Shown here piece by piece: positions 5,541-22,730 of a stretch of DNA of 23,164 nucleotides. Positions within the stretch are counted from its first letter, which is position 1. Each line of letters starts with the position of its first letter. The DNA comes from a bacterium (lineage in GTDB: Bacteria > Arandabacterota > Arandabacteria > Arandabacterales > JALGWA01): contig JASFEA010000036.1 in assembly GCA_050125095.1 (NCBI GenBank), positions 1-23,164 on the forward strand. The letters are read 5' to 3'. The position numbers and the translations under genes were made by a program. Under the pieces are notes generated by a model. The model had not been told where the DNA came from, made no database searches, and saw only the letters and a list, made by a program, of their open reading frames with translations.

Positions 5541-5550
5541 GAGGAAGGAA

Positions 5551-6402
5551 ATGGAAGTCAAGAAGGTAGGGGTAGTCGGCGCCGGCACGATGGGGAACGG
5601 GATAGCCCATGTGTTCGCGATGAGCGGCTATGACGTTGTGCTCATGGACGTGGAGGAGAGCTTCCTCGAGCGCGCCATAAGCATTATCACGAAGAACCTC
5701 GACCGCATGATCAAGAAGGAGAAGATCACGGAGGCCGAAAAGGAGGCAACCCTCTCGAAGATCAAGAGGACCGTGAACATCGGCGATATGGCGGACTGCG
5801 ATGTCGTCGTCGAGGCGGCCACGGAGGACTTCGCCCTTAAGAAGAAGATCTTCAAGGACCTGGACTCCGCCTGCAAGAAGGGCGCGATCCTGGCCACCAA
5901 CACGTCCTCGATCTCGATCACCCAGATCGCGGCCATTGTGAAGTGCCCCGACAAGGTCATAGGCATGCATTTCATGAACCCGGTCCCCATGATGAAGCTC
6001 GTCGAGGTCGTGCGCGGAGTGGCCACTTCGGACGAGACTTATAATGCCGTCATGGACCTCGCCGCCAAGCTGGGAAAGACCCCGGTGGGCGTAAACGACT
6101 ATCCCGGCTTCGTGGCCAACCGTCTTCTCATGCCCATGATCAACGAGGCGTGCTACGCCCTCATGGAGGGCGTGGCCACCAAGGAGTCAATCGACACCGT
6201 CATGAAGCTCGGCATGGCGCATCCGATGGGTCCGCTCGCGCTGGCCGACCTCATCGGGCTGGACGTATGTCTTGCCATTATGGAAGTGCTGTATGAGGGC
6301 TTCGCGGATTCCAAGTACAGGCCATGCCCTCTCTTAAGGAACATGGTCAAGGCCGGCTATCTCGGAAGGAAGACCAAGCGGGGCTTCTACGAGTACGAGT
6401 AA
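5551..6402 (+). CDS. hbd: 3-hydroxybutyryl-CoA dehydrogenase
   Basis: [13 protein letters not shown] Rossmann motif, ATNTSS, GMHFMNP, PGFVANR and HPMGPL. ATG 5551 follows AGGAGGAAGG. Confidence 0.93.
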
Positions 6403-6422
6403 TAGCCCCCGCTGTCAGATTC

Positions 6423-6460
6423 GGGGCTGCTTCCCCTCAGGAGGCAGCCCCTTTCTCCTA
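6423..6460 (+). terminator. Probable Rho-independent terminator of the acyl-CoA operon
   Basis: GGGGCTGCTTCC-cctca-GGAGGCAGCCCC forms a 12-bp stem (one G-U pair) followed by TTTCTCC, 20 nt after the hbd stop. Confidence 0.7.
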
Positions 6461-6518
6461 TCACCTCTTTTCCGGTGCCCTTTTCTCCAATGCTCTCTTC
6501 TTTAATGCACCCTCTCTT

Positions 6519-6544
6519 GTACCGGATCGTGTGTACCGGATCGT
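6519..6544. repeat. Short direct repeat GTACCGGATCGT x2 (14-bp period)
   Basis: Copies at 6519-6530 and 6533-6544, lying between convergent genes. Confidence 0.6.
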
Positions 6545-6554
6545 ACGGCGCCGC

Positions 6555-6947
6555 CTAGGTCTGTGAGGGAGGGGGCGCCTCCTGGTCTTCCGGGGGCTCG
6601 ATCATCATCTTGGGCGTCGAGTTCTCCTCGGCGAATGTGTCCGAGGCCTCCATGTAGACGCAGTATGGGTGCACGCCCCTGGTAGCGTCGGCAGCCACCG
6701 TCACGGTGGTCTCCTTATCCGCATCCAGGTGAATGAACCTGTTGGCGAAGATACTCGCCGAATCGTCGATGGGCACTATGATGGTGACATTCTCGCCGCT
6801 ATTGTTCCTGAAAGTGACGTCCTCGCCTCTCTCTATATAGATCTCCGGGTCTCCGATCTTAAGGTCCTCCGGGGGAACGGCATGTCCGCCCGACTGGGAG
6901 ACTCTGCGGTCACTTCCGATGCTCACCTCAAGCACAAGTCCTGACAT
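6555..6947 (-). CDS. Hypothetical 130-aa acidic, beta-rich protein (possibly cupredoxin-like fold)
   Basis: Strong AGGAGG RBS 7 nt before the ATG. The pattern 'PEIYIERGEDVTFRNN…TVTV…GVHPYCVY' resembles a cupredoxin strand order, but there is no C-x(n)-H-x(n)-M copper motif. Confidence 0.7.
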   Translation of the reverse strand: MSGLVLEVSIGSDRRVSQSGGHAVPPEDLKIGDPEIYIERGEDVTFRNNSGENVTIIVPIDDSASIFANRFIHLDADKETTVTVAADATRGVHPYCVYMEASDTFAEENSTPKMMIEPPEDQEAPPPSQT

Positions 6948-7044
6948 TTCTCATCCTCCTTCGCAGGCTGCGGTTTAACCGTGAGTAGATTCAATCCTCT
7001 TCCGGCAGGCCGCCCACGTCAGCCGGCTCGGCCCGCATGCATGA

Positions 7045-9720
7045 CTATCTCCCGTCTTTGCGGCCGCCTTCCAGATAATCGAGCACCTCGGGGATGTCCC
7101 TGAAGCGTTCATCTACGACCATGCTCCTGAACCTGGGCGATTTAACGACATACTCCGCCGCATAGCCGTTCGCGACCGCCCGGGCGATCCACTCGATGGC
7201 CAGGTCGCGTTCGCCAAGGCATTCATATACCTCGGCGATGCGGAACTCGGTCGCGGGATCCGCGATGCTCATCTGTACTCCCTGTTCCACGAGTTTCCGC
7301 GCCTCCTCTGTTCTGCCGAGTTCAGCGTAGTAGCTGGCCAGGTCGGTCATTATGATCACGTCATCGGGCTCCTCCGCCAGCTCCTTCCGGGCCAGGTCCG
7401 CCGTGCGCTCGAGAAGCGCGGTCGCGGTGTCCCTCTTGCCGGGCATCCAGTAATAGCTCTCCGCAAGGCTGCCCCATACCGTATACCATGCATCCGGCTT
7501 CAGCTTGAGGGCTTCTTCATACATCGCCGCGGCATCGGCGAAACGCGTGTCATAGAAATAGAAAGTCCCCAGGTTGGTGTAGGTCTGGTAATCGGGTTTG
7601 ATCTTGAGTGACCGCTCGAGTATCGTTATGGCCTCCGCATGATGTCCCTCGAGGTCATAAGCCGCCGCCAGCCCGCTGAGGAACCACGTGTTCTCGGGGG
7701 CCAGCTCCAGGGCCCTCTTGTAGTAATCTATAGCCTGGCTGTAGACGCCGCCTTTGTAATAGAACATCGCCAGGTCCCACTGGGCAATGGCGTCGCGGGG
7801 GCGTTTCTCGGCGGCCATGCGGTAGGCAAGCTCGGCCGATTGCATATCGCCCCGCCGCTTATGGAGGTCGGCGAGTTGCCAGTAGGCGTTCCAGTAGTAG
7901 GGGTTCACTGCCAGGGCCGTTTCGAGAGTCGCGATTGCGGCCGAAGTGTCTCCGATGGCCGCCTGAATCCTCCCCAGCGTGATGCGCGGAGACGATGCGC
8001 CATGGTCGAGTTCTATCGCGCTTCTGCAGGCTTGCTCCCCGCGTTCGGCCCAGGTGATGTCCCTGGTCCTTTTGTGTTTGAGCATGCAGACATGCCCGAG
8101 TTGAGCGTATGCGAGCGCGTATGACGGGTCCAAGTCCGCGGCCTTTTCCAGCCAGGCCAGCGAGGTGTCCAGTTCACCCGGGGCCCTTGGGAGCTTCAGG
8201 TATCCCAGACCCATAAGATACGACTCGAATGCGGCGGGGACCACGGTTTCGCCCGACCTGAGTTTCTGCCTCAGCTCCGGCGTGATCCGGGCGTCCAGCA
8301 TTCTGGCCAGCTCGACGGCGGCGCTGTCCTGCCATGTAATGAGGTTGGCCGTGTGGTCGGTGATGACGAGGCTGTCCGTGTCCTCTGCCAGGCCCCGCCC
8401 CCGCACGTCATGCCGGCCGAGCGCGAGTATGAGCGTGTCCCCCCGGCAGCCGAGGGTGCCGCTTATGGCTACGTTGGCGCCGAGCTCAAGGCAGGACTTC
8501 TCGGGCTGCGTGAGGTCGGTCGCGAGCGGTGTATAGCGCATGACCGTCCAGAGCGAATCCTCCGGGCTTTCGAGGCCATTCAGGCGATATGCTATGTAGT
8601 CCGCCAGCCCCTCGCAGTACATCCTGTGCTCGGAGTCTCCCTTCTCGAGGTTGAAGTCCAGGAGGAGCACCCGTCTCTCCCCGCGCGGCCGCTCCTTGCC
8701 CATATAGGTCGCCAGTCTTTGCCTCAATGGAGTTGCCAGCAGGAGGATCACGGCTATGATGGCGATGCCGGCCGGGAGCGCGTAACGTCTGACCTTCTCC
8801 GTCCTCGCGAATGCCGGCACCGGAACGGCGATGACGCTGTCGGAGGTGAGCTCGTCGAGGAGCCTCTGAAGCGCTTCTCCCAGCTCCTCCGCCGTCTGGT
8901 ACCTGCAGGCGGGGTCTTTTTCGAGACATCGCTGGACAGTGTCCGCCAGTTCCCTGGGCAGGCGCCTGTTGATCTCATCGATTCGGCGGGGCGCCTCGTG
9001 AAGTATCGAATATATGACGGCCGACGAATTGGCGCCCCGGAAGGGCCGCCCTCCGGTGAGTGCTTCGTAAAGCACCACCCCCACCGACCAGATGTCGGAC
9101 CTCTGGTCAACGGTCTCCCCGCGGGCCTGCTCGGGCGACATGTAAAGAGCTGTGCCTACCGTGATGCCGGTTTTGGTAAGCTGGGTCTCGCCCGCGAGCT
9201 TGGCCAGGCCGAAATCGAGCACCTTGGCGCTGCCGCGGTCGGTCACCATTATATTGCCCGGCTTGATGTCGCGATGCACTATGCCGGCCTCATGAGCGCG
9301 GGCCAGACCGTCGCATACCTCTATGGCGATCTTGAGAACGGTTTCCAAGTCAAGGGAACCCGATTCGATCCTGCTCTTGAGCGTGTCTCCCTCATAATAC
9401 GACATGCAGATGAAGGTCTGGCCGTCGGGGGTCTCCTCTATTTCATGTATATTGCAGATATGCGGATGGTCGAGTGACGATGCCACCTGGGCTTCCTGGA
9501 GAAAACGCTTCTTGGCTTTCTCGTCCCTCGTGAGGTCGTAGGGCAGGAACTTGAGCGCGACCCGTCGCTTGAGCTTCGTATCCTCGGCGAGATAGACCTG
9601 GCCCATAGCGCCCTCGCCGATCTTCTCGATTATGCGGTAATGGGCTATGACTGTGCCCGCCGCGATATACTTGAATGAGCGGGTACTATCCAGCTCGTCA
9701 TTTCCGTGGTCAGGAGACAT
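7045..9720 (-). CDS. Hanks-type Ser/Thr protein kinase with one TM helix and C-terminal TPR repeats
   Basis: IGEGAMGQVY, VALK, HRDIKPGN, DFGLAK, YMSPEQ and SDIWSVG motifs. Hydrophobic segment YALPAGIAIIAVILLLA. Repeated TPR patterns (…ALELAPEN, …SLKIKPD, …ALKLKPD). Confidence 0.93.
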   Translation of the reverse strand: MSPDHGNDELDSTRSFKYIAAGTVIAHYRIIEKIGEGAMGQVYLAEDTKLKRRVALKFLPYDLTRDEKAKKRFLQEAQVASSLDHPHICNIHEIEETPDGQTFICMSYYEGDTLKSRIESGSLDLETVLKIAIEVCDGLARAHEAGIVHRDIKPGNIMVTDRGSAKVLDFGLAKLAGETQLTKTGITVGTALYMSPEQARGETVDQRSDIWSVGVVLYEALTGGRPFRGANSSAVIYSILHEAPRRIDEINRRLPRELADTVQRCLEKDPACRYQTAEELGEALQRLLDELTSDSVIAVPVPAFARTEKVRRYALPAGIAIIAVILLLATPLRQRLATYMGKERPRGERRVLLLDFNLEKGDSEHRMYCEGLADYIAYRLNGLESPEDSLWTVMRYTPLATDLTQPEKSCLELGANVAISGTLGCRGDTLILALGRHDVRGRGLAEDTDSLVITDHTANLITWQDSAAVELARMLDARITPELRQKLRSGETVVPAAFESYLMGLGYLKLPRAPGELDTSLAWLEKAADLDPSYALAYAQLGHVCMLKHKRTRDITWAERGEQACRSAIELDHGASSPRITLGRIQAAIGDTSAAIATLETALAVNPYYWNAYWQLADLHKRRGDMQSAELAYRMAAEKRPRDAIAQWDLAMFYYKGGVYSQAIDYYKRALELAPENTWFLSGLAAAYDLEGHHAEAITILERSLKIKPDYQTYTNLGTFYFYDTRFADAAAMYEEALKLKPDAWYTVWGSLAESYYWMPGKRDTATALLERTADLARKELAEEPDDVIIMTDLASYYAELGRTEEARKLVEQGVQMSIADPATEFRIAEVYECLGERDLAIEWIARAVANGYAAEYVVKSPRFRSMVVDERFRDIPEVLDYLEGGRKDGR

Positions 9721-9995
9721 ACCGATGCCCTTCCGGTATATGTCCGGAGCGTGCCTACCCTGTTACCAATTGCCCCATTCCGCCAGCTCCGCAAAGACTA
9801 TATCACCAGGGCCACGGGGCTGGAAGCAAAAACTCCCGGCCGAATTACCTGTTGCTTTTGGGTAGGGTTTATAGAGAATTGGGAGTACGTCCGGAACCCG
9901 CTGCTCGTGCCCGATGCGGCTTTTTGTCGGCGATGCGGCTCTTTGCAGGAGTGCAGTCGGGCCGGGGCGGTATCGGATACAGCAGAAGGTCTGCG

Positions 9996-11243
9996 ATGGA
10001 AGCAGGTTCCGACATATGGGCTCGACTCCTCAGTGTTCTTCACACAAGCGACGTTCTGACCCTGGGCGTACTCATATTCGCCGGGTTCCTGATGGGGAAG
10101 GTCGCGGAGCGTGTCAGGCTTCCCGCCATTACGGGTTACATTGTCGCGGGCGTGCTTGCGGGCCCGTCCCTCCTGGGCCTCGTGAGCGAGGAGACCGGTG
10201 ACAGTCTCGCCGGCATAACACATGTCGCCCTCGGCCTGATAGCGCTGACTATAGGCGGCGAGTTCAGCCTCGCGCGTGTCAGGCGCACCGGGGTCAATAT
10301 CATAGTGCTCACCATGTTCGAGGCCCTTTTCGCCTTTGCCCTCGTCACCGCAGTAATGCGCTCGCTGGGGGTGGCAACGCCCGTATCGCTTCTCCTGGGA
10401 TCCATTGCGGCAGCCACGGCCCCGGCCGCTACGGTCGTCATAATAAGAGAGCTTAAGGCGCGCGGGGAGTTCATAGACTACCTCTATGGTGTGGTCGCCT
10501 TCGACGATGCGGTATGCGTCGTTCTCTTCAGCGTGATCTTCGCCTTCATAACTCCTGCTCTCTCGGGCGCGGCCTCGGGAGCCGGCGTGCTGGGGGGACT
10601 CTGGCACGCCGTATCGGAGATCGTGCTGTCGGGCCTAATAGGGTTCGTGGGCGGTATGGCCGTGCACCTTCTGGTGCGTCGCAGGCACAGGACCGGCGAG
10701 GTTCTCCTGATATCCATCTCGTTCCTCTTCCTGGTCTCGGCGCTGTCGATTGTGCTCAATCTGTCATCGCTCATTGCCAATATGGCCATGGGGGCCTGCC
10801 TCATTAATCTCTCGTCGAGGAACAGGAGGGTGTTCGAGATACTCGAGCCCCTGACCCCGCCGATCTTCGCGCTGTTCTTCGTGATAGCGGGCACCGAACT
10901 CAGTATTTCGGTCTTTGCATCGGGCTTCATAGTGCTCCTTGGTACGGCCGCGATTCTGAGCCGGTTTGCCGGCAAGTGGGCGGGCATATACCTGGGCGCT
11001 TCGCTGACGCGCGCGCCCGATGAGGTCAGGAAGTATCTGGGATTCTGCCTGGTGCCCCAGGCGGGCGTCGCGCTGGGGCTGGCCCTGTTCGTGCGCACGT
11101 CGCCGCTTGCGATGTCCCTGCCGCCGGGGGCCAGGGAGTATATGGCGCTTACCGTGGACGTGGTTCTCTTAAGCGTTTTCATTAGCCAGATTGTGGGGCC
11201 GGCGGTCTCGCGCTATGGAATAAAGAGGGGCGTTGGACTATGA
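9996..11243 (+). CDS. Cation:proton antiporter (CPA2/KefB-like Na+(K+)/H+ exchanger)
   Basis: About 12 hydrophobic segments. RLPAITGYIVAGVLAGP, ATAPA, AFDD, FFVIAG and PQAGVALGLA motifs. The start is placed at ATG 9996 because the longer ORF-track N-terminus is not protein-like. Confidence 0.87.
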   Translation: MEAGSDIWARLLSVLHTSDVLTLGVLIFAGFLMGKVAERVRLPAITGYIVAGVLAGPSLLGLVSEETGDSLAGITHVALGLIALTIGGEFSLARVRRTGVNIIVLTMFEALFAFALVTAVMRSLGVATPVSLLLGSIAAATAPAATVVIIRELKARGEFIDYLYGVVAFDDAVCVVLFSVIFAFITPALSGAASGAGVLGGLWHAVSEIVLSGLIGFVGGMAVHLLVRRRHRTGEVLLISISFLFLVSALSIVLNLSSLIANMAMGACLINLSSRNRRVFEILEPLTPPIFALFFVIAGTELSISVFASGFIVLLGTAAILSRFAGKWAGIYLGASLTRAPDEVRKYLGFCLVPQAGVALGLALFVRTSPLAMSLPPGAREYMALTVDVVLLSVFISQIVGPAVSRYGIKRGVGL

Positions 11244-13850: not shown

Positions 13851-15041
13851 CTACTCGAGAGCTGCGGCCAGTATCTCCGTAACGTCCATGACCTCGATCT
13901 CTATGCCCATGGACTTGGCCGTCTCCTGGATCATCTGCTGGCAATAGGGGCAGGCCACCGCGATTACGTCCGCGCCAGTAGCCGTGAGCTGCTCTAGGCG
14001 GACGGCGACGATCCTCTCGTCCTTGTCCCACTCGTTCCAGAGGGCTCCGCCGCCTGCGCCGCAGCAGACGCTGAACTCGCGATTGAAGTCGGGGACCTCC
14101 AGGAGCTCCAGTCCGGGTATGCTCCTCAAGACTTGCCGCGGCTCATCATAGACGCCGCTCTGCCTTCCGAGAGTGCATGGGTCGTGATAGACGACCTTCT
14201 TCTTGAACTCCCCGGCCGGTTTGAGCTTGCCCTCTGCTATGAGCCCGGCCAGTACCTGGGTTATGTGGACGGCTTCGAACCGGGCCCCGTGCTCGGGGTA
14301 TTCGTTTTTGAAGGTCACGTAGCAGTGAGGCGAGTTGACCAGCACGCGGTTCGCGCCGGCTTCGGTGAACGCCGCGATGTTTGCGGCGGCGTTCTCCATG
14401 AACACCTCTTCGGCCCCGACGCGCCTTATTGCCTCCGAGCAGCATTTGTTTGCCGCGGGGAGGAGACCGAAGGAGACGCCGGCGGCCTTGAGGGCCCTGG
14501 CGACGGCCTTTGATACCTCTTTTATGCGAGGGTCATAGGAAGATATGCAGCAGGAGAAGTAGAGGTAGTCCATGCCGGCCTCGTAGGCCGGGATGTCGAG
14601 TTCCTTGGCCCAGTCCAGGCGCTTCTCGGCGGGGTCGCCGGTGGGATTGCCCGTGTCGCGTATTCTCCCCACTACGTCCTTGAGCGCCTCGGGATAGGAG
14701 CCGTATTCCACGAGTATCCGCCTCGCCGCCCTCAGTATGGTCGGGATCCTGACGCCGTGCGGGCACTGATTGACGCAGGCCTCGCAGCCGACGCAGCGGT
14801 AGATCTTGTCGACCTCCGCCATGAGGTCGTCCTTGTCCTCGCTGCTCGCCATCATCCCGAGCGCGGCTTCGAGGGGGAAGCGGTAGACGGGGAAGTCGTA
14901 TGTGCCCACCTGGAACCACGGGCAGACGCTGGTGCACTTGCCGCACTGGTAGCATTTGAATATGTCTTCCGCGCCCATCTCGAGGAGGAATTCCCTGATT
15001 TCGGGATTGAGCTCGTCTACCAGTGACTTTCTGTCAGTCAA
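13851..15041 (-). CDS. Soluble HdrD/FadF-like Fe-S oxidoreductase (2x[4Fe-4S] plus two CCG domains)
   Basis: CYQCGKCTSVCP and CVGCEACVNQCP, then KCCSE…SPHC and YHDPC…CCGAGGG…ACPYC. No TM segments. Overlaps the hdrA stop by 8 nt. Confidence 0.87.
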   Translation of the reverse strand: MTDRKSLVDELNPEIREFLLEMGAEDIFKCYQCGKCTSVCPWFQVGTYDFPVYRFPLEAALGMMASSEDKDDLMAEVDKIYRCVGCEACVNQCPHGVRIPTILRAARRILVEYGSYPEALKDVVGRIRDTGNPTGDPAEKRLDWAKELDIPAYEAGMDYLYFSCCISSYDPRIKEVSKAVARALKAAGVSFGLLPAANKCCSEAIRRVGAEEVFMENAAANIAAFTEAGANRVLVNSPHCYVTFKNEYPEHGARFEAVHITQVLAGLIAEGKLKPAGEFKKKVVYHDPCTLGRQSGVYDEPRQVLRSIPGLELLEVPDFNREFSVCCGAGGGALWNEWDKDERIVAVRLEQLTATGADVIAVACPYCQQMIQETAKSMGIEIEVMDVTEILAAALE

Positions 15042-16986
15042 ATAGCACCTCTACCATTCTCGTAAGCTGTTCGTCGCTCAGGTTCTTCTGCTGTGTTGCT
15101 CCCGTCCCGCAGGCCACGACACACGCGCCGCAGCCCTTGCACAGCGCCTCCACCACGCGGACGACCTTTTTCTCCTCGTCGTACTCGCGCGCGTCATACG
15201 GGCATGTGCTTATGCAGAACTGGCAGCCCGAGCACAGGTCCTCGTCGACCCATGCCACCATGGGCTCCACCAGGAGCTCCTTCCTTAAGAACATCTCGAG
15301 CACCTTGGACGCGGCGGCGGATGCCTGCGAGACGGTCTCGGGGATGTCCTTGGGGCCCTGCGCGCAGCCGGCCAGGAAGAAGCCGGGCGCGAGGGACTCC
15401 ACCGGGCGGAGCTTGGGATGGGCCTCGCTGAAAAAGCCGTGCTCGTTGGTGTGGATCCTGAGCTGCCTGGCGAGCTCGGCGGCCGCGGGGGAGGGAGCTA
15501 TGGGCGTTGCCAGCACCGCCATGTCGCAGTCTACCCGCATCTGTTTGCCGCTTAAGGTGTTGGTGCACCAGACCGCGACTCCGTCCTCGGTTTGAAGCAC
15601 CCTCGAGGGCTTGCCCCTGACATAGATGACATTCTCTTGCTGCTTTGCCCTTGCGTAGAACTCCTCATATGTCTTGCCGGAAGTCCGGACGTCGATGGTG
15701 AATATGATGGCCTCGCCGTCGGGTACGTGTTCCCTGTAGAGCATGGCGTGCTTGGCCAGGTACATGCAGCAGACCTTGGAGCAATATGGCATGTAGTGTT
15801 CGGGATCGCGCGAGCCCGCGCATGATATGAACGCGACGCGCTTGGGCACCTTGCCGTCCGACGGCCGCCTGACCTCGCCCGCCGTTGGGCCGGAAGCCGA
15901 GAGCAGCCTCTCGAACTGAAGGCCGTGGACGACGTCCGGTATGCGGCCCGAGCCGTATTCGGCCAGGTTGGCCTTGTCGTAGAGCTCGTATCCGGTCGCG
16001 ACAACCACGGCTCCGACCCCTTCCTCCACGATCTCGTCCTGCTGCTCGTAGTCGATCGCCCCGAGCGTGCAATTGGTCTTGCACGCCCCGCACTTCCCGT
16101 CCTTCGTGAAATAGAGGCAGGTTTGCCGGTCTATTACCGGCCTGTTGGGCACGGCCTGGGGGAACGGGGTATATATGGCCTTCCTGTCCCCGAGCCCCTC
16201 GTCGAACTCCGACGGCACCTTGACCGGGCACTTCTCAATGCATATGCCGCAGCCCGTGCAGGCAGCGCTGTCCACGCATGAGGCCTTCTTCCTGATGCGC
16301 ACCGTGAAGTTGCCGACACTGCCTGATATGTCCTCGACCTCGGAGTAGGTGAGTAGTTTTATGTTGGGGTTCTGGGAAACGTCCACCATTTTGGGCGTCA
16401 GTATGCACTGCGAGCAGTCCAGCGTGGGAAAAGTCTCCGAGAGCTGCGCCATGTGGCCGCCCACCGACGGCGTCTTCTCGACAAGCACCACTTCATAGCC
16501 CGAGTTGGCGATGTCCAGGGCCGCCTGGATGCCGGCGATGCCCCCGCCGATTACGAGGGCGCGGGGAGTGACCGGGATCCTGGCCGGGGTCAGCATCTCG
16601 TTGAGTTTCACCTTCTCGACGATTGTCTTGATAATGCCTATGGCCTTTGCCGTCGCGGTGGCCGTGTCGGTGTGGACCCAGCTGCATTGCTCGCGGATGT
16701 TGGCTATCTCGGCGAGGTAGGAATTGAGGCCCGCGGCCTCCGCCGTCCTCCGGAAGGTGGCTTCATGCAGCGACGGGGAGCATGCGGCCACGACGATGCC
16801 CTCCAGGCCCTTCTCCTCGATTGTCTTCCTTATAAGAGCCTGGCCGGGGTCCGAGCACATGTACTTGTAGTTTTCACAGTGCTCGACGCCGTCGAGTACG
16901 GCGATCTCTTCCACGACCCGGTCGACGTCGACCGTGCCGGCTATGTTCCTGCCGCAATGACAGACAAAGACGCCGATTCTTTTCAT
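15034..16986 (-). CDS. hdrA: Heterodisulfide reductase subunit A-like FAD/Fe-S protein
   Basis: GVFVCHCG…ACSP…NIREQCSW N-terminus, GGGIAG FAD motif, ETFPTLDCSQC, an inserted ferredoxin, CAGSRD…YCSKVCCMY, GCAQGPKDI and a C-terminal ferredoxin. Confidence 0.93.
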   Translation of the reverse strand: MKRIGVFVCHCGRNIAGTVDVDRVVEEIAVLDGVEHCENYKYMCSDPGQALIRKTIEEKGLEGIVVAACSPSLHEATFRRTAEAAGLNSYLAEIANIREQCSWVHTDTATATAKAIGIIKTIVEKVKLNEMLTPARIPVTPRALVIGGGIAGIQAALDIANSGYEVVLVEKTPSVGGHMAQLSETFPTLDCSQCILTPKMVDVSQNPNIKLLTYSEVEDISGSVGNFTVRIRKKASCVDSAACTGCGICIEKCPVKVPSEFDEGLGDRKAIYTPFPQAVPNRPVIDRQTCLYFTKDGKCGACKTNCTLGAIDYEQQDEIVEEGVGAVVVATGYELYDKANLAEYGSGRIPDVVHGLQFERLLSASGPTAGEVRRPSDGKVPKRVAFISCAGSRDPEHYMPYCSKVCCMYLAKHAMLYREHVPDGEAIIFTIDVRTSGKTYEEFYARAKQQENVIYVRGKPSRVLQTEDGVAVWCTNTLSGKQMRVDCDMAVLATPIAPSPAAAELARQLRIHTNEHGFFSEAHPKLRPVESLAPGFFLAGCAQGPKDIPETVSQASAAASKVLEMFLRKELLVEPMVAWVDEDLCSGCQFCISTCPYDAREYDEEKKVVRVVEALCKGCGACVVACGTGATQQKNLSDEQLTRMVEVLFD

Positions 16987-17961
16987 CTACTGCTTCATTT
17001 CCGCTATGCTGTTCTTGAGCACCGGCAGTACCTTGAAGAGGTCGTCAACGATCCCGTAATCCGCCTCGTTGAATATGGGCGCTTCTGGGTCCTTATTTAT
17101 GGCCACTATCGTGTCCGAGTTCTTCATGCCCGTAAGGTGCTGGAATGAGCCCGATATCCCGATCGCGACGTAGAGTTTGGGCTTTATGGTCTTTCCCGAC
17201 GATCCGACGAGGCGGTCCTTGGGCAGCCACTCGGCGTCGGCGACGGGGCGCGAGCAGGCCACGACGCCTCCTATGGCCTCCGCGAACTCCTCTATGAGAG
17301 GGATGTTCTTCTGTTCCTTTATGCCGCGGCCGACGCTCACAATGATGTCGGCCTTGGTTATGTCCACGTCACCGGTAACGGCCTCTATGTAGTCCAAGAA
17401 CTTGAGATGCGCCGGGTCGGGCAGGGCGGGGGCGTCCAGCTTCACCACTTCCGCGTCGGCGCCTCCCTGCTCGGCGGCGGTGGCGCCGGCCCTCAGGCTC
17501 AGCAGATAGGAGGGGCCCTCCCTGAAGGAGACCCTCTCGTTGAGCTTGCCGTCGTACACCTGCCGCACGGCGACCGGTCGGTCGCCGGACATCTCTACGC
17601 CTATGCAGTCGGTGGTGAACGGGACATCCAGATGCGTGCCCAGCGCCGAGGTCAGCTCGATGCCGTAGGCCGTATGTCCTATGAGCGTTATGAAAGGCTG
17701 CTCCTTGCCGATGATGTCGGCCAGGGCCGCCTGGTAGAACTCGTTGTTGAAGTCCTTGAACGCCGGGTCGTCCACGACCAGGATGCGGTGGGCATGGGGC
17801 TTGAGGCTTGTGACCATGGAATCCGTTTCGGACCCCAGCAGCACGGCCGTGAGCTTGCTTCCCGTCTGGTCGGCAAGCTTCCTGCCGCAGGTCATCACCT
17901 CATAGGTCGCATCCCTGATCTCTCCCCGTCGATGCTCGACTAATGCAAGAATGTCACCCAT
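16987..17961 (-). CDS. etfA: Electron transfer flavoprotein alpha subunit
   Basis: VSVGRG, ACSRPVAD, VGSSGKT and LYVAIGISGSFQHLTGM…AINKD…APIF motifs. Confidence 0.93.
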   Translation of the reverse strand: MGDILALVEHRRGEIRDATYEVMTCGRKLADQTGSKLTAVLLGSETDSMVTSLKPHAHRILVVDDPAFKDFNNEFYQAALADIIGKEQPFITLIGHTAYGIELTSALGTHLDVPFTTDCIGVEMSGDRPVAVRQVYDGKLNERVSFREGPSYLLSLRAGATAAEQGGADAEVVKLDAPALPDPAHLKFLDYIEAVTGDVDITKADIIVSVGRGIKEQKNIPLIEEFAEAIGGVVACSRPVADAEWLPKDRLVGSSGKTIKPKLYVAIGISGSFQHLTGMKNSDTIVAINKDPEAPIFNEADYGIVDDLFKVLPVLKNSIAEMKQ

Positions 17962-17972
17962 GTCGTCCTCCG

Positions 17973-18746
17973 CTATATCAGACCTTTTTCCTTAAAAATC
18001 GTCGCCATCTTGACGGAGATCTCCTCGACGTTTCCCTCGAGGATCTCCGCGCGCTTTGTAACCGGCGGAATGAAGAGCTCCTCGACCTGGGTGTTCGCCC
18101 GGAGATCGCCTTCATTGACGCCGTCGCCTCCCAGGGTCTGGATTTCCTTCTTGGCCGCCTTGCGTATGGCGATGAGAGAGGCGTAGCGGGGAACGTTGAT
18201 CCCCGTCTGAACGGCAACCATCGCCGGAAGCGTTATCTCCAGGTGCTCCTGGAGCCCGCCCTCGACCTCTTTGTGTATGTCGGCCCTGTCGCCCTCGGCC
18301 TCGATCTTGCTCACCAGCGTGGCGTGGGGGATACCGAGGAGTTTCGCCAGCACGACGCCGACCTGGTAACAGGAGTCATCCGACGCCATCGTCCCCGCGA
18401 AGATGATATCGTAGGGAATGTCCTTGATGGCGGCGTGCAGGAGCTGGGCTGTCTTGTAAGCGTCGAGGTCGCCGAAGTCTTCCGCCTTCACCCTTATCGC
18501 ATTGTCCGCGCCCTTGGCGAGTGCCACGCGCAGCGTGTCCTGGGAGTCCGGCTGCCCCACCGAGAGCGCCGTGATAGTGCCCCCGTACTTCTCCTTAAAG
18601 AGCACGGCCTCTTCAAGCGCATAAGTGTCGAACTCGTTGGTATCGAAGGTCAGATGCTCCCTGTCGATTTTCTTTCCCGAGGAATCGACCCGGACTTCGG
18701 CTTCCGCCGTCTGGGGCACCCTCTTCATGAGCACTATGATATTCAA
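17973..18746 (-). CDS. etfB: Electron transfer flavoprotein beta subunit
   Basis: MKRVP, NEFDTYALEEA, ALAKGAD and NVPRY motifs. TTG start follows GAGGGG. Adjacent to etfA. Confidence 0.92.
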   Translation of the reverse strand: MNIIVLMKRVPQTAEAEVRVDSSGKKIDREHLTFDTNEFDTYALEEAVLFKEKYGGTITALSVGQPDSQDTLRVALAKGADNAIRVKAEDFGDLDAYKTAQLLHAAIKDIPYDIIFAGTMASDDSCYQVGVVLAKLLGIPHATLVSKIEAEGDRADIHKEVEGGLQEHLEITLPAMVAVQTGINVPRYASLIAIRKAAKKEIQTLGGDGVNEGDLRANTQVEELFIPPVTKRAEILEGNVEEISVKMATIFKEKGLI

Positions 18747-18852: not shown

Positions 18853-18919
18853 GCTCGTTAGGAGGCGAGCAGGGGGGCGCCCCTGATGCCCCGCGGGCCG
18901 CAAAAACTCATCTTGCTGC

Positions 18920-18948
18920 TTGACAAATAGGATTAATTCCTAAATAAT
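18920..18948 (+). promoter_or_regulatory. Sigma70-type promoter of the diheme enzyme operon, with a Fur/PerR-type palindrome in the spacer
   Basis: TTGACA (18920-18925), 17 nt, AATAAT (18943-18948). The 7-1-7 palindrome TAGGATT-A-ATTCCTA (18928-18942) has one mismatch. Confidence 0.75.
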
Positions 18949-19011
18949 AGCAGCACCTCAAATAAAAGGAGTTTTGCAGACAAGCCGCAAACGCGGAAAG
19001 GGGGGTGAATC

Positions 19012-20163
19012 ATGAATAAGATCTATCTGGCCTCGCTGGCGCTCCTGGCGGCCGTCGTCGTAATGAGCATAGCGGCTGGGCAGGCGCCGGGCTCTTCGCC
19101 GCCCCTGGGACTGCCGCCCGTGCCCGTACCTGAAGGCAATCCCCAGACTCCGGAAAAGGTGGCCCTCGGCGACAAGCTCTTCCATGACACGAGGTTCAGC
19201 TCAACCGGAGAAGTCAGCTGCGCGACCTGCCATGCCGCCGAGAAGGCGTTCACCGACAGCCCGCTCAAGACCTCCGAGGGCATCAACAAGCTCACAGGTA
19301 CCAGGAACGCGCCGACCGTCCTGAACTCGGCCTATATGACGACTCTTTTCTGGGACGGCCGTTCCCCGGACCTTGAGGACCAGTCCCAGCACCCGTTCGT
19401 TAATCCGGTCGAGATGGGCCTGGAGGACCACCGGCCGATCCTCGATGTCGTCCGGTCGGACCCAGAATACGTCGAGGCCTTCAAAGACGTCTTCGGTAAG
19501 AGCGCTGATGAGGTCGGCATGACGGAAGTCATGATGGCCATTGCCGCCTTCGAGCGAACCCTCATCGCGGGGGACTCGCCGTTCGACCATTACTATTTCA
19601 CCGGCAAGGCGAGCGCCCTGACCGAGCAGCAGAAGCGGGGGTTCGACATCTTCGTGAACAAGGGGCGCTGCGTGAGCTGCCACCGCATCGAGCAGACGCA
19701 GGCCGTCTTCACCGACAACCGTTTCCACAATATCGGCGTCGGGATCAACAGCATCCAGGACGATGTCCCCGAAATCGCAGGCGAGTTCCTGCGCGCCGAC
19801 GCCAGCCTCGCTGAAGTGGACATCCAGGTGCTCACAGACCCCAGGACTTCGGAGCTCGGGCGCTTCGTGGTGACGCACGGCTTCGACGGAGTGGGGGCCT
19901 TCAAGACTCCGACGCTCCGCAACATCGCGCTGACCGCGCCCTATATGCATGACGGAAGTATCGCCACATTGCGGGACGTGGTCGTTCATTACAACAACGG
20001 GGGAGTGACCAAAAAAGACGATCCGGTCAATGACTTCCTGAGCGGAGGCATCCGCCCGCTCAACCTGGCCGAAGAGGAGATCGACGACCTGGTCGCCTAT
20101 CTTGAGTCGCTTACCAGCGAGGAGTACGCCCATCTGGCGGGAGACGCCGGAAGCGGGAAATGA
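19012..20163 (+). CDS. Periplasmic diheme bCcP/MauG-family enzyme, MauG-like (His/Tyr heme)
   Basis: Sec-type signal peptide; CATCH and CVSCH heme motifs; RNAPT, FWDGR, NPVEM, FKTPTLRN and APYMHDG, followed by VVVHY. Confidence 0.9.
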   Translation: MNKIYLASLALLAAVVVMSIAAGQAPGSSPPLGLPPVPVPEGNPQTPEKVALGDKLFHDTRFSSTGEVSCATCHAAEKAFTDSPLKTSEGINKLTGTRNAPTVLNSAYMTTLFWDGRSPDLEDQSQHPFVNPVEMGLEDHRPILDVVRSDPEYVEAFKDVFGKSADEVGMTEVMMAIAAFERTLIAGDSPFDHYYFTGKASALTEQQKRGFDIFVNKGRCVSCHRIEQTQAVFTDNRFHNIGVGINSIQDDVPEIAGEFLRADASLAEVDIQVLTDPRTSELGRFVVTHGFDGVGAFKTPTLRNIALTAPYMHDGSIATLRDVVVHYNNGGVTKKDDPVNDFLSGGIRPLNLAEEEIDDLVAYLESLTSEEYAHLAGDAGSGK

Positions 20164-20174
20164 AGGAGGCAGCC

Positions 20175-21245
20175 ATGAGCAATCAAACACGACGTGAGTT
20201 TTTGAGGACGGCGGGTGCGATCGCTGCTGCGAGCTGCCTGCCTATGACCGCGGTCGAGATGGCCTTCGCGGACAAGAGCAAGAACTTCACCTTTGCGCAC
20301 ATATCCGACGCGCACATCCAGCACATAAAGGGCGCCGAATTCGTGCGGAACTGGGACAGGGGCCTTATCCGGGCGGTTGCCGAGGCCAACCTCCTGGAGC
20401 CCAAGCCCGACTTCGTGGTGTTCGGAGGCGACCTGGCGCAGCTGGGCAAGAAGTCAGAGCTGGATCACGGTGCAGAGATGCTCTCCAAGCTCAACTACAA
20501 GACGTACTGCGTGATGGGCGAGCATGACTACTATCTCGACCTGGGCGAATACTGGTCGAAGCTCTTCGGCGACCACTACTACAGCTGGGATCACAAGGGA
20601 GTCCACTTCGTCGTGCTCAACAGCATATTGACCTACGACGAGTGGACCCACGAGCGCTGGCCTACCGCAGAGCAGCGCATGCTGGAGATGGCCGGGCTTG
20701 ACAATCCCAACGGTTCGCCATTCATGGTGGGCGAGAAGCAGCGCAAGTGGCTCGAGAAGGACCTCGAGAAGGTCTCCAAAGACACGCCCGTGGTCGTCTT
20801 CTCCCACTCGCCCATTCAGAAGATCTATGCCGGCTGGAATTTCTGGACGGAGGACGCCGAAGAGGTTCAGGCGCTGCTCAAGCCCTTCGATGACGTCACT
20901 GTTGTCTACGGTCACGTCCACCAGATTCAGTATAACCAGATCGGAAATATCAGTTTCAACGCGGTCATGGCGACAGCCTGGCCATGGCCGTACCCCGAGA
21001 GCTATGTCCACGCCGACGTCAAGTGGCCCAATATGACGGTGCCGATGAACCGCGCGGACCCGTTCTTCGAGAGGGACGCAACGGGGTGGCAGATGGTCGA
21101 CCTAGACAGAGGGCGCGTTGGACTGCGCTATAACCTCTACGACAACACCGACCGCACCGTCGCGTATAACCGCGACACCGGGCGCCCCGAGGACATGGAC
21201 TTTCAGGACGAGGCGGACAGGGTCCCGCCGCAGACCCATTACTAA
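20175..21245 (+). CDS. Tat-exported calcineurin-like metallophosphoesterase
   Basis: TRREFLR twin-arginine signal; SDAH, GGDL, GEHD, FSH and GHVH metal motifs. AAGGAGG RBS precedes ATG 20175. Confidence 0.88.
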   Translation: MSNQTRREFLRTAGAIAAASCLPMTAVEMAFADKSKNFTFAHISDAHIQHIKGAEFVRNWDRGLIRAVAEANLLEPKPDFVVFGGDLAQLGKKSELDHGAEMLSKLNYKTYCVMGEHDYYLDLGEYWSKLFGDHYYSWDHKGVHFVVLNSILTYDEWTHERWPTAEQRMLEMAGLDNPNGSPFMVGEKQRKWLEKDLEKVSKDTPVVVFSHSPIQKIYAGWNFWTEDAEEVQALLKPFDDVTVVYGHVHQIQYNQIGNISFNAVMATAWPWPYPESYVHADVKWPNMTVPMNRADPFFERDATGWQMVDLDRGRVGLRYNLYDNTDRTVAYNRDTGRPEDMDFQDEADRVPPQTHY

Positions 21246-21256
21246 AGGAGAGACCG

Positions 21257-21670
21257 ATGAGATATAAGATCGCGGGTTTGGTGGTCGTGGCGGCTGTCCT
21301 GGCTCTGGTCATAGGACGAGTTGCGACCCGGGCCGATGAGTTCACCGAGGAGGACCTGAAGCGTTGGGAGTCCGAGTTCATGAGCGTCGTCAAGGATGGC
21401 CGCGAACTGTGGGTGAGTGCCGAGCTCGGGACCAACGGAGTGGCCTGCGCCCAGTGCCATCCCAATGCCGCTAACACGCATCCGGAGACCTACCCCAAGT
21501 TTCAGCAGCAGCTGGGTCGCGTTGTCGCCTTCCGCGAGATGATTAACTGGTGCATTTTGAATCCCCTTGAGGGAGAGCCGCTGGAGCTGGACGAATACCG
21601 GATGATAGCCATGGAGGCCTACGCGACTTATGAACGCCGCGGGGTGCCACTGGCTCCAGGCAAGCATTAG
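21257..21670 (+). CDS. Small exported monoheme cytochrome c, SoxA/TsdA-domain-like
   Basis: Signal peptide, CAQCH, then YPKF…GRVV…REMINWCILNPLEGEPL…MIAMEAY. AAGGAG RBS. Confidence 0.85.
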   Translation: MRYKIAGLVVVAAVLALVIGRVATRADEFTEEDLKRWESEFMSVVKDGRELWVSAELGTNGVACAQCHPNAANTHPETYPKFQQQLGRVVAFREMINWCILNPLEGEPLELDEYRMIAMEAYATYERRGVPLAPGKH

Positions 21671-21703
21671 GCGCGTTGGGGGGGGAATCGTTAGGGCCGG
21701 AGA

Positions 21704-21736
21704 CAGAGTTCCCCGCCGGTTCCGGGGGGGACTCTG
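21704..21736 (+). terminator. GC-rich hairpin after the cytochrome gene (possible terminator)
   Basis: CAGAGTTCCCC…GGGGGACTCTG inverted repeat with no clear U-tract. Confidence 0.45.
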
Positions 21737-21750
21737 ATCATGCCGGCGAC

Positions 21751-21779
21751 TTGACAAGTGCGATCCGGATGTTAGTAAT
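21751..21779 (+). promoter_or_regulatory. Probable sigma70 promoter for perR
   Basis: Perfect TTGACA at 21751-21756 and an AT-rich TAGTAAT at 21773-21779, just before ATG 21785. Confidence 0.5.
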
Positions 21780-21784
21780 AGAAT

Positions 21785-22225
21785 ATGAAGACTCGACGCA
21801 AAAGAGACCTTAACCCCGACATTAGAGCTGCGCTCAGGAAAAAGGGTCTCAAGGTAACGCCGCAGCGCGAAGTGGTCTATGACGAGCTTTTGAGGTCAGG
21901 AACGCATCCGACCGCCGAGCAGCTCCACTCGAAAGTGAAGAAGCGCCTGCCCAATGTATCTATGGACACGGTTTACCGCACTCTGCTGACCTTGGTAGAA
22001 ATAGGGCTGGCAGATGTCGTGGAGGGCGAAGGCAGCCCGCGCCGTTACGACCCCGAGACGAAGGCGCATCATCACGTTCATTGCGTGAAGTGCGGGGCCA
22101 TAAAGGACTTCTTAAGCTCCGAGTTCGATGCCCTCGAGACCCCCAAAGACATCAGGAAGAGCTTCGAGGTCCTCGGCAAGAGGGTGGTAATCAGCGGAAT
22201 CTGCAGCCGTTGCCGGGGTAAGTGA
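21785..22225 (+). CDS. perR: Fur-family regulator, PerR-like
   Basis: KVTPQR, HPTAE, TVYRTL and RYD…HHHVHCVKCG…D…CSRC. The Asp/His/His/Asp regulatory site and 4-Cys Zn site are as in PerR. Confidence 0.8.
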   Translation: MKTRRKRDLNPDIRAALRKKGLKVTPQREVVYDELLRSGTHPTAEQLHSKVKKRLPNVSMDTVYRTLLTLVEIGLADVVEGEGSPRRYDPETKAHHHVHCVKCGAIKDFLSSEFDALETPKDIRKSFEVLGKRVVISGICSRCRGK

Positions 22226-22313
22226 CCGGAAGGACCTCCCTGCTCTGTTTGCTGTTGTGTCCTGCTGTGTTTCATTGTATTTCTATAGAGTAGATTCAAA
22301 GCAAGGAGAAAGC

Positions 22314-22730
22314 GTGAACATCAAAGGCACTTCCAGAGAGATAGGCAAAGAGACCACGAACGAGATCTGCAGCCAGTGCCCCTCGCTGTGCTGCAAGAAC
22401 CTGAGCATGATGATTTACCGGCCCGAGAACCGTTCCGAGGTGGAGGATCTCAAGTGGCAGCTCCGGTTCGACACTGTGAGCGTATACATAAGGAGCCACA
22501 GGTGGTACCTCTTAATTGAAGGCAGGTGTATGTATCTGGCCGATGACGGCAGGTGCCTGGAATACGACGGACGCCCGGACAAGTGCCGCCGGCACAATCC
22601 CCCGGATTGCGAGTTCTTCGGCGAGTTCTATGACGTGATGATTGAGACGCCCGAAGAGCTGGAGGATTACCTCAACAAGAAGAAAAAAAGGAAGAAGAAG
22701 CGGGCCGGGCGCCTTAAGAAAGCTGCATAG
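22314..22730 (+). CDS. YkgJ-family (CxxCxxCC) cysteine-cluster protein
   Basis: CSQCPSLCC…CMYL…CLEY…RPDKCR…C and a Lys-rich tail. AAGGAG RBS precedes GTG 22314. Confidence 0.8.
   Translation: MNIKGTSREIGKETTNEICSQCPSLCCKNLSMMIYRPENRSEVEDLKWQLRFDTVSVYIRSHRWYLLIEGRCMYLADDGRCLEYDGRPDKCRRHNPPDCEFFGEFYDVMIETPEELEDYLNKKKKRKKKRAGRLKKAA

Follow-up and report, generated by a model that had tools for sequence, protein, structure and literature searches.

What do three genes for exported proteins do together when they stand packed behind one promoter in a bacterium of the phylum Arandabacterota? The genes lie on contig JASFEA010000036.1 of assembly GCA_050125095.1, which was analysed over its positions 1 to 23,164 (23,164 nucleotides; hereafter the window), and they encode a dihaem enzyme of the CCP_MauG family, a metallophosphoesterase (MPE) and a small cytochrome; a gene for a Fur-family regulator follows. 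We conclude that the trio is a real, strongly co-occurring unit and that it constitutes an uncharacterised cassette, which probably carries out peroxide-driven redox chemistry that is yet undescribed. The reading that we prefer, to which we assign a probability of roughly 0.4, is a peroxide-induced module in which the MPE and the cytochrome form a redox enzyme, the H2O2-activated dihaem enzyme acts as its oxidant, and a small reduced substrate donates the electrons. The same reading, with the same credence, takes the genes for a periplasmic redox cassette that is complete in itself, spreads horizontally and is switched on by peroxide stress.

A conserved three-gene cassette

A scan based on the MPE, with one genome per species, gave 268 relatives; 80 loci were retained. 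In all 80, the gene immediately upstream of the MPE gene is the dihaem gene. In 76, the gene immediately downstream of it is the cytochrome gene, and three of the four exceptions fall at the end of a contig. The remaining one is locus L017 from an Omnitrophota metagenome-assembled genome (MAG), where the MPE runs on into an open reading frame (ORF) of 1728 aa (4983-10169, + strand) with a long repetitive C-terminal extension and with no cytochrome gene after it; this ORF is either a true fusion or an assembly artefact. A second clade, for which a 42% identical relative (P0138) served as query, preserves the gene order (35 of 39 loci, 40-56% identity), with the MPE match and the cytochrome match about 0.3-0.8 kb apart. 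Among its members are Kuenenia, Scalinduaceae and Brocadiaceae MAGs and a cultured Vitiosangium. A survey of co-occurrence had been proposed as a check when the window was read from sequence alone (the sequence-only reading), and its outcome upholds the grouping of the three genes.

Identity to the window's proteins ranges from 55 to 77% for the dihaem enzyme, from 71 to 80% for the MPE and from 65 to 81% for the cytochrome. The means over the 80 loci are 70%, 76% and 73%, respectively, which is unusually high for a set that spans more than 10 phyla: Latescibacterota, Calditrichia, Gemmatimonadota, Krumholzibacteriota, Acidobacteriota, Planctomycetota, Verrucomicrobiota, Omnitrophota, Desulfobacterota, Myxococcota, Methylomirabilota and Gammaproteobacteria are represented. 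The gammaproteobacterial carriers include the cultured Methylotuvimicrobium buryatense 5G and Steroidobacter gossypii. No fourth gene recurs beside the trio in a clustering of the flanking ORFs of the 80 loci, which contains overlapping shadow ORFs and served only to test for a recurring fourth family. Because the flanks differ from locus to locus, the cassette appears to move horizontally; the high identity across so many phyla, combined with these differing flanks, suggests recent horizontal spread or very strong constraint.

Literature searches, whose coverage left paywalled papers and supplements outside, found no published work on the trio and no matching characterised operon, in agreement with the earlier statement that no characterised pathway with this combination was known. 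The cassette is common in environmental bacteria, including cultured methanotrophs, Steroidobacter, myxobacteria and anammox MAGs, and sequences of the MPE fall into 4567 clusters at 90% identity. Public annotation still describes the protein as a cAMP phosphodiesterase or metallophosphoesterase.

The dihaem enzyme is of the MauG/MbnH type

The first protein of the cassette begins with a hydrophobic stretch, read by eye as a putative Sec signal, and matches PF03150 at 189 bits. It has two haem motifs (C70xxC73H74 and C220xxC223H224) and, between the haems, the tryptophan W114 (in FWDGR), all conserved in 78 sequences. Among solved structures MbnH (6e1c) is the nearest, aligned over its full length with E = 1.3e-50; canonical peroxidases come next, aligned mostly over the N-terminal half, and are followed by MauG chains (E ~1e-32). 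Y327 occupies the distal-ligand position; it and H326 are each retained by at least 98% of the 78 sequences. In the alignments, Y327 falls on the Tyr of MbnH 6e1c and on the position that bears a Met in G. sulfurreducens CcpA (3hq9), a Met that we take, from a residue count, to be the E-haem ligand of that enzyme. His-Tyr versus His-Met ligation is reported to separate MauG-type from canonical enzymes (PMC11892367). Since a Tyr sits where canonical peroxidases carry Met, the sequence assigns the protein to the MauG/MbnH type and not to the canonical peroxidases, so that the label 'MauG-like' given to it at first reading is retained.

MbnH and MauG are also the best NCBIfam models for the protein, although both score below their cut-offs (TIGR04039, the MbnH family, 257.7 against 362.85; TIGR03791, MauG, 211.5 against 443.85). 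The cassette gene is the sole CCP_MauG gene of the 3.35-Mb, 91%-complete genome. In that genome, the model for MbnP-like proteins (TIGR04052, MbnP_like_WxW) had no matches. The light chain of methylamine dehydrogenase (MADH; PF02975) had none either, which is a weak negative, as the control matched no genome. The absence of mauAB- and mbnP-like genes, first remarked for the window, thus extends to the genome, with the MADH part of it weak.

A metallophosphoesterase fold with an altered metal site

The second protein matches PF00149 at 58.2 bits (cut-off 21.5) and carries a twin-arginine motif (PF10518, 17.1 bits, below the cut-off of 22.7). Its sequence contains the motifs D45xH47, G85-D86, H211 and G246-H247-x-H249, together with a motif III that reads G115-E116-H117-D118, and these motifs give D45, H47, D86, E116, H211, H247 and H249 as the metal ligands. 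Motif III is thus GEHD instead of the usual GNHD and places a glutamate, E116, where a metal-binding asparagine is expected. GEHD is invariant among 81 close sequences, and of 39 sequences of the MPE family, down to 26% identity, at least 90% have E116. By fold and score the protein is a member of the PF00149 superfamily that is atypical in one ligand. As a matter of chemistry, the additional carboxylate of E116 would favour higher metal oxidation states. A further invariant feature is the tripeptide W269-P-W271, an instance of the pattern WxW.

An AlphaFold2 model of the protein (pLDDT 84.5) has GpdQ (3d03) and Rv0805 as its top folds in Foldseek, followed by purple acid phosphatases; the values are E = 2e-15 with a TM-score to the target of 0.74 for GpdQ, and E = 9e-15 with a TM-score of 0.66 for Rv0805. 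The cassette protein has six of the seven metal ligands in common with these nearest folds. It differs from them in its overall sequence (16-20% identity), in having GEHD for GNHD, in being Tat-exported and in possessing extra invariant loops. The sequence-only reading had pointed to a kinship of the hydrolase with SoxB, which holds at the level of the superfamily but not for the architecture: Pfam returned only Metallophos and TAT_signal, with no 5'-nucleotidase C-terminal domain, and no SoxB model was among the NCBIfam matches at E <= 0.01.

A single-domain cytochrome and its predicted complex with the metallophosphoesterase

The cytochrome begins with a hydrophobic stretch, read by eye as a Sec signal, and consists of a single domain with one haem motif, C64xxC67H68. 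It matches PF21342, the SoxA/TsdA haem domain, at 51.4 bits (cut-off 27), and in the alignment its C99 falls on the Cys that ligates the haem in SoxA (1h31) and in TsdA (4wq7 family); C99 is our candidate for the sixth haem ligand. The haem motif, W98-C99 and the C-terminal PGKH are invariant across 35 cytochrome sequences. The likeness to SoxA/TsdA that had been noted for this protein is therefore well founded at the level of the domain family and of the Cys position, although the SoxA equivalog TIGR04484 scores below its cut-off (45.1 against 110 bits) and the two-haem-domain architecture of TsdA is lacking. The signature residues of all three proteins recur in L095, the one locus of the second clade that was read, which retains HY, GEHD, AWPWPY, NWC and the terminal GKH. 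The cytochrome of L095 (7079-7891, + strand) is longer, with 270 aa and a Pro-rich, low-complexity N-terminal half, and also ends in GKH.

Modelling of complexes had likewise been suggested as a check, and it favoured a pairing of the MPE with the cytochrome. The prediction used residues 35-356 of the MPE and 26-137 of the cytochrome, an alignment for each, a haem and two Mn. The three runs gave ipSAE values of 0.92, 0.87 and 0.81 (median 0.87), whereas the best of three controls reached 0.11. They share at least 73% of their contacts, and the pLDDT of the partner is at least 90. The mark used for calibration, which was reached by 58 of 80 solved complexes and by 2 of 110 mismatched pairs, is only a rough guide here, given that alignments of our own and added ligands were used.

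On the cytochrome side, the predicted interface comprises residues 65-70 (the CxxCH stretch), W98/C99 and 126-130. On the MPE side it comprises Q49, I51, V57 and N59, which lie just past the DxH motif, as well as G174-N177, W221, W269-P272, 274, 276-280, R293 and D295-F297. These are the residues that are invariant in the clade outside the classical MPE motifs, and the extra invariant loops GLDNPNG, GWNFW, AWPWPYP and RADPFF make up the predicted contact surface for the cytochrome. Judging from the usual MPE topology, the interface residues would rim the two-metal site, and the haem/Cys face of the cytochrome would cap the opening of the active site. The conserved C-terminal His of the cytochrome (in PGKH) lies outside the predicted interface.

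Electron carriers accompany distant relatives of the metallophosphoesterase

Longer distant relatives of the MPE are fused at the C terminus to a cupredoxin domain (P0204, P0236) or a Rieske domain (P0214). Two further clades, P0224 (66 loci) and P0235 (16 loci), have no match to the window's dihaem enzyme or cytochrome in any of their 82 loci at E <= 1e-3. In the P0224 clade, a cluster of cupredoxin ORFs occurs in 34 of 63 loci and a cluster of class-I cytochromes c in 17 of 63. Every member of these carrier clusters is on the strand of the MPE, and in the scanned representatives (one per cluster) the ORF begins about 30-40 nt after the MPE match. The same clade has a cluster of ECF sigma factors in 39 of 63 loci and one of zf-HC2 anti-sigma factors in 41 of 63, again with one representative scanned per cluster. 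Its neighbourhood has the look of another uncharacterised module, distinct from the cassette but with the same metalloenzyme at its base. The hosts of this clade (L121-L183) are Steroidobacteraceae, Dyella, Variovorax, Dokdonella and others.

Since these distant relatives pair with a cupredoxin, a Rieske domain or a cytochrome c instead, the recurring core, as read from gene neighbourhoods, is the MPE with a small carrier; the MPE clades that bear WPW are the ones with both the dihaem enzyme and the His/Cys cytochrome. Both clades with a dihaem gene have WxW at the site of W269-P-W271, and the two sampled dihaem-free clades lack it, with STAYPQPA in P0224 and ATAWPLPR in P0235.

Could the cassette consist of ordinary parts, that is, of a cytochrome c peroxidase and its donor cytochrome next to an unrelated phosphate-scavenging phosphatase? 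Public names for the MPE are only generic (CpdA, Icc, metallophosphoesterase), and the genome has no other CCP-family gene. We nonetheless find this explanation barely credible: Tyr, not Met, occupies the position of the E-haem ligand, the trio has remained linked in two clades that are deeply split, the model of the MPE with the cytochrome beats its controls, the exchange of Asn for Glu is conserved, relatives are fused to electron carriers, and no pho-type gene is conserved nearby in the survey of flanking ORFs.

Promoter, regulators and a plausible link to peroxide

The features of the locus are collected in Table 1. Both gaps within the trio measure exactly 11 nt, and each holds a ribosome-binding site: AGGAGG at the junction of the dihaem enzyme and the MPE (TGA-aggaggcagcc-ATG), and AGGAG at that of the MPE and the cytochrome (TAA-aggagagaccg-ATG). 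The tight packing of three genes for exported proteins, each with its own ribosome-binding site, was thus described correctly from the outset. An alternative ATG for the MPE, at 20160, overlaps the preceding stop codon; homologues begin at residues 1-6 of the shorter form.

Table 1. Coordinates of the cassette genes and of the regulatory features around them in the window
Feature	Position	Strand	Length	Basis or remark
Dihaem enzyme (CCP_MauG family)	19012-20163	+	383 aa	ORF listing
Metallophosphoesterase (MPE)	20175-21245	+	356 aa	ORF listing
Small cytochrome	21257-21670	+	137 aa	ORF listing
Fur-family regulator, PerR-like	21785-22225	+	146 aa	PF01475
Sigma-70-type promoter: TTGACA (18920-18925), 17-nt spacer, AATAAT (18943-18948)	18920-18948	+		11/12 matches
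Palindrome TAGGATTAATTCCTA, candidate operator of a Fur/PerR-like regulator	18928-18942		15 bp	within promoter spacer; sequence reading
G+C-rich hairpin without U-tract	21704-21736	+		between cytochrome gene and regulator gene

The sequence-only reading had placed the trio behind one promoter with a Fur/PerR-type operator and had seen a hairpin, then perR, after it. The promoter, a strong one, and the palindrome in its spacer are present, and the palindrome is a candidate operator. The region has 2 promoter-like sites where shuffles average 1.2, a count that is by itself unremarkable. The hairpin is also borne out: the 117-nt spacer after the cytochrome gene folds with -51.1 kcal/mol (z = -3.07), and 2 of 200 shuffles folded equally well. 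As it has no U-tract, it is not a canonical intrinsic terminator, and the promoter/terminator scan listed none on the + strand at this position. The name perR is not secured, the gene being one of the Fur family that our tests did not discriminate further.

Among NCBIfam models, PerR fits its product best (106.3 bits, cut-off 180), and among solved structures B. subtilis PerR (2fe3) is the closest; the alignment matches the His/Asp site as well as both CxxC pairs. Five Fur-family genes adjacent to cassettes were tested, the window's included, and all had PerR models as their best match, below the cut-off. An Asp at the position of B. subtilis PerR D104, which we take to be a criterion for telling PerR from Fur, is present in all 12 Fur-family sequences aligned. 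The best family match and this Asp were rejected as discriminators, since all three Fur-family genes of the genome match the same PerR model best, below its cut-off, and share the Asp.

Fur-family genes adjoin the cassette in 32 of the 80 loci, 28 of them upstream and on the same strand. In three gammaproteobacterial loci (L040, L072 and L077), OxyR-like LysR genes stand divergently upstream; OxyR is their top model, with 275.3, 212.5 and 258.9 bits, respectively, all under the cut-off of 329. The regulator of L040 matches P. aeruginosa OxyR (4x6g) with E = 2.1e-68 and has both redox cysteines (GHCLRDQ and AICE), a check that was confined to L040. Because Fur-family genes stand beside the cassette in these 32 loci and OxyR-like genes in three, a link to peroxide is plausible from the gene neighbourhoods. 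The palindrome in the promoter spacer, the ECF and zf-HC2 neighbours of the P0224 clade and the status of the dihaem gene as sole CCP_MauG gene of the genome also count in favour of it. This much of the proposal of a peroxide-induced module survives, whereas the identification of the regulator as PerR is not secured by sequence.

Palindromes of the class T-N-R-G-A-N5-T-C-Y-N-A occur in 11 of 76 orthologous promoter regions, compared with 5 elsewhere in the ~729 kb of the loci. A genome-wide operator search was rejected as a basis for inferring a regulon, the palindrome being no commoner than its control. Counts of k-mers in the 400 nt upstream of the dihaem gene yielded coding-sequence words only, because many upstream regions are the regulator gene, and they were replaced by the defined promoter regions. 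Four loci from Steroidobacter, Peristeroidobacter and a Pseudomonadota MAG (L037, L063, L073 and L080; the MAG is L037) have no Fur-family neighbour and carry palindromes of the type TTAGAC-N3-RTCTAA 20-93 nt upstream of the dihaem gene, as if they were controlled by a regulator encoded elsewhere.

The regulators bear on two other explanations of the cassette. In the first, the Fur-family neighbour would sense Fe or Mn, and the cassette would oxidise or otherwise handle periplasmic Fe(II) or Mn(II), comparable to EfeUOB in its peroxide-dependent uptake of iron or to MbnH/MbnP in copper handling. The sequence tests that were run could not distinguish the window's regulator from Fur, the MPE is a Tat-exported metal-binding protein, and MbnH/MbnP act in copper handling (PMC11951088). 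A role in metal homeostasis is nevertheless highly improbable in our estimation, given that the survey of flanking ORFs showed no conserved gene for a transporter, permease or TonB receptor next to the trio and that OxyR-like regulators take the same place at three loci.

In the second, the cassette would comprise two reductases with one donor: the two-metal site of the MPE would reduce peroxide or another oxidant, following the logic of rubrerythrin, and the dihaem enzyme would be a parallel peroxidase on the same cytochrome. Oxidative-stress regulators adjoin three different MPE clades (oxidative stress is a frequent signal of zf-HC2 anti-sigma factors), the whole MPE family has carriers either fused to it or next to it, and the extra carboxylate ligand is widely conserved. 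Genes for peroxide removal beside a Fur-family gene are moreover a familiar layout in anaerobes, where sets of rubrerythrin genes are so arranged. We still consider such a pair of reductases quite unlikely. His/Cys haems usually have very low potentials and are poorly suited to receive electrons from the respiratory chain, and we know of no MPE-fold peroxide reductase. In addition, MauG-type enzymes are described as poor peroxidases in dye-linked assays (PMC11892367).

Proposed mechanism and the role of the dihaem enzyme

In the reading that we prefer, the Tat-exported MPE and the small His/Cys cytochrome would form a tight heterodimer that functions as a redox enzyme and not as a plain phosphatase. 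The His/Tyr dihaem enzyme would react with H2O2 and draw two electrons from or through this pair, which is the least certain step. The net reaction would be the reduction of H2O2 coupled to the oxidation of a small reduced compound at the site formed by the MPE and the cytochrome. For this compound our first guess is a sulfur oxyanion or a sulfane, because a Cys-haem of the SoxA/TsdA type would lie beside an oxyanion-binding metal site. Expression would be governed by a PerR-like Fur-family repressor, bound to the palindrome between the -35 and -10 elements and released upon peroxide. The gene order with its conservation and the family signatures are observed, and the heterodimer has the support of a model; the direction of electron flow, the substrate and the signal of the regulator are inferred throughout.

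Several points weigh against this mechanism. Its substrate is a guess: the pointers to sulfur are limited to the likeness of the cytochrome to SoxA/TsdA and the superfamily kinship of the MPE with SoxB, and no other sox genes are conserved beside the cassette in the flanking ORF survey of the loci. The score of the complex expresses the model's own confidence and is no measurement. As to the peroxide switch, 48 of the 80 loci have no Fur-family neighbour, and the window's regulator scores under every curated cut-off and is only 29-45% identical to the Fur-family genes beside other copies of the cassette. The two other Fur-family genes of the genome share its best PerR model and its ligand residues. 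The promoters that yielded the palindrome pattern are also those in which its occurrences were counted; with the exact arms TAGGA-N5-TCCTA, the window's site is the only one in the genome, and the reversed control gives 3 per strand. Finally, the characterised His/Tyr dihaem enzymes MauG and MbnH are protein-modifying maturases and not electron sinks (PMC11951088, PMC11892367).

That MauG and MbnH are maturases favours a different role for the dihaem enzyme, in which it would use H2O2 to convert a Trp of its partner to a protein-derived cofactor, and the mature pair of MPE and cytochrome would then work independently. W269 or W271 of the MPE would be the likeliest targets, W98 or C99 of the cytochrome being the other candidates, and the product could be kynurenine, hydroxy-Trp, a quinone or a cross-link. 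MauG-type dihaem enzymes are marked by a bis-Fe(IV) state that forms with H2O2 and by the oxidation of a partner protein. MbnH, the closest solved relative of the cassette enzyme, and MauG act on co-encoded partners, in which each oxidises Trp: the target of MbnH lies in a conserved WxW of the periplasmic metal-binding protein MbnP and is converted to kynurenine at the expense of H2O2, and MauG oxidises Trp residues of its partner at long range (PMC11951088). A further His/Tyr enzyme, BthA of Burkholderia, always adjoins a putative purple acid phosphatase, which has been proposed as its oxidation target (PMC6405878).

The cassette itself offers a comparable target. The invariant W269-P-W271 lies at the predicted interface and on the predicted rim of the active site, the genome has no MbnP-like gene, and WxW tracks the dihaem gene through the four clades, being absent from the two clades in which none of the 82 loci has a dihaem match. 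On the other hand, WxW is a pattern of three residues in a Trp-rich protein, and its tryptophans are also predicted contacts of the cytochrome. Docking alone could explain the correlation, since the clades without WxW lack the cytochrome too. We regard maturation, the main rival of our preferred reading, as somewhat unlikely, and our preference stays with the dihaem enzyme as the oxidant of the redox pair.

In a more specific proposal, the MPE and the cytochrome would represent a new class of periplasmic redox metalloenzyme with a two-metal centre, a Cys-ligated haem and a Trp-derived cofactor at W269-P-W271 that is installed by the dihaem enzyme, and the mature enzyme would oxidise an inorganic oxyanion, for instance thiosulfate, sulfite or phosphite, at the expense of H2O2. 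We think this combination doubtful.

Comparison with known systems

Among the nearest known systems is MbnH/MbnP, given that MbnH 6e1c is the nearest solved relative with a Tyr at the same position and that the cassette MPE has an invariant WxW. In contrast to that system, the cassette enzyme falls under the MbnH cut-off, an MbnP-like gene and methanobactin genes are absent, and the partners are an MPE and a His/Cys cytochrome. MauG and its substrate, the precursor of MADH (preMADH), offer a second parallel, as both dihaem enzymes are of the His/Tyr type and belong to one superfamily; the cassette protein differs in scoring below the MauG equivalog cut-off and in the lack of a match to the MADH light chain, with the weakness of that negative noted above. 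BthA resembles the cassette in its genomic pairing with phosA, a putative purple acid phosphatase of the MPE superfamily, and its function is left unassigned in the accessible part of the source, which mentions no cytochrome partner (PMC6405878). It is a distant relative of the cassette dihaem enzyme (6nx0, E = 8.7e-18), and the cassette MPE, with Glu in motif III, is of the GpdQ/Rv0805 kind.

The systems of sulfur oxidation are comparable in other respects. SoxB is a two-metal hydrolase of the MPE superfamily, and the cassette cytochrome belongs to the SoxA/TsdA haem-domain family with the active-site Cys position kept; the predicted complex would unite a Cys-haem and a metal site in one enzyme. 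The cassette departs from Sox and TsdA in having a single 137-aa cytochrome domain below the SoxA cut-off and an MPE with neither a 5'-nucleotidase domain nor a SoxB match. No SoxYZ or SoxX gene is conserved nearby in the survey of flanking ORFs.

If the proposed mechanism is true, the cassette would add a third and very widespread class of partner for MauG-type enzymes, beside MADH and MbnP. It would also be a case of a phosphoesterase fold recruited to electron-transfer chemistry, and it would constitute a periplasmic response to peroxide that is unlike the canonical cytochrome c peroxidase.

Genomic context

An ORF of 157 aa (22257-22730, + strand) begins 31 nt past the Fur-family gene and may be co-transcribed with it. 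Its product has a putative Zn/Fe-chelating domain with the motif CxxCxxCC (PF03692, 27.6 bits) and a tail rich in Lys and Arg.

The remaining genes of the window code for methylmalonyl-CoA mutase, acyl-CoA dehydrogenase, thiolase, 3-hydroxyacyl-CoA dehydrogenase, EtfAB-like and HdrA-like proteins and CCG-domain Fe-S oxidoreductases, a content that suits an anaerobic fatty-acid degrader. Upstream of the cassette, the - strand carries EtfB-like and EtfA-like ORFs (recognised from their translations), a 650-aa protein with FAD and 4Fe-4S domains and a 396-aa CCG-domain Fe-S protein (13851-18746); this set resembles the electron-transfer modules of anaerobic fatty-acid oxidisers. Farther away, also on the - strand, lies a gene for a Ser/Thr protein kinase of 891 aa that has an extended TPR region (7045-9720). 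DNA nearly identical to that of the window is present in contigs of runs labelled as wetland, sediment and seawater metagenomes; no RNA run is among those listed, and four runs contain at least half of the sampled words.

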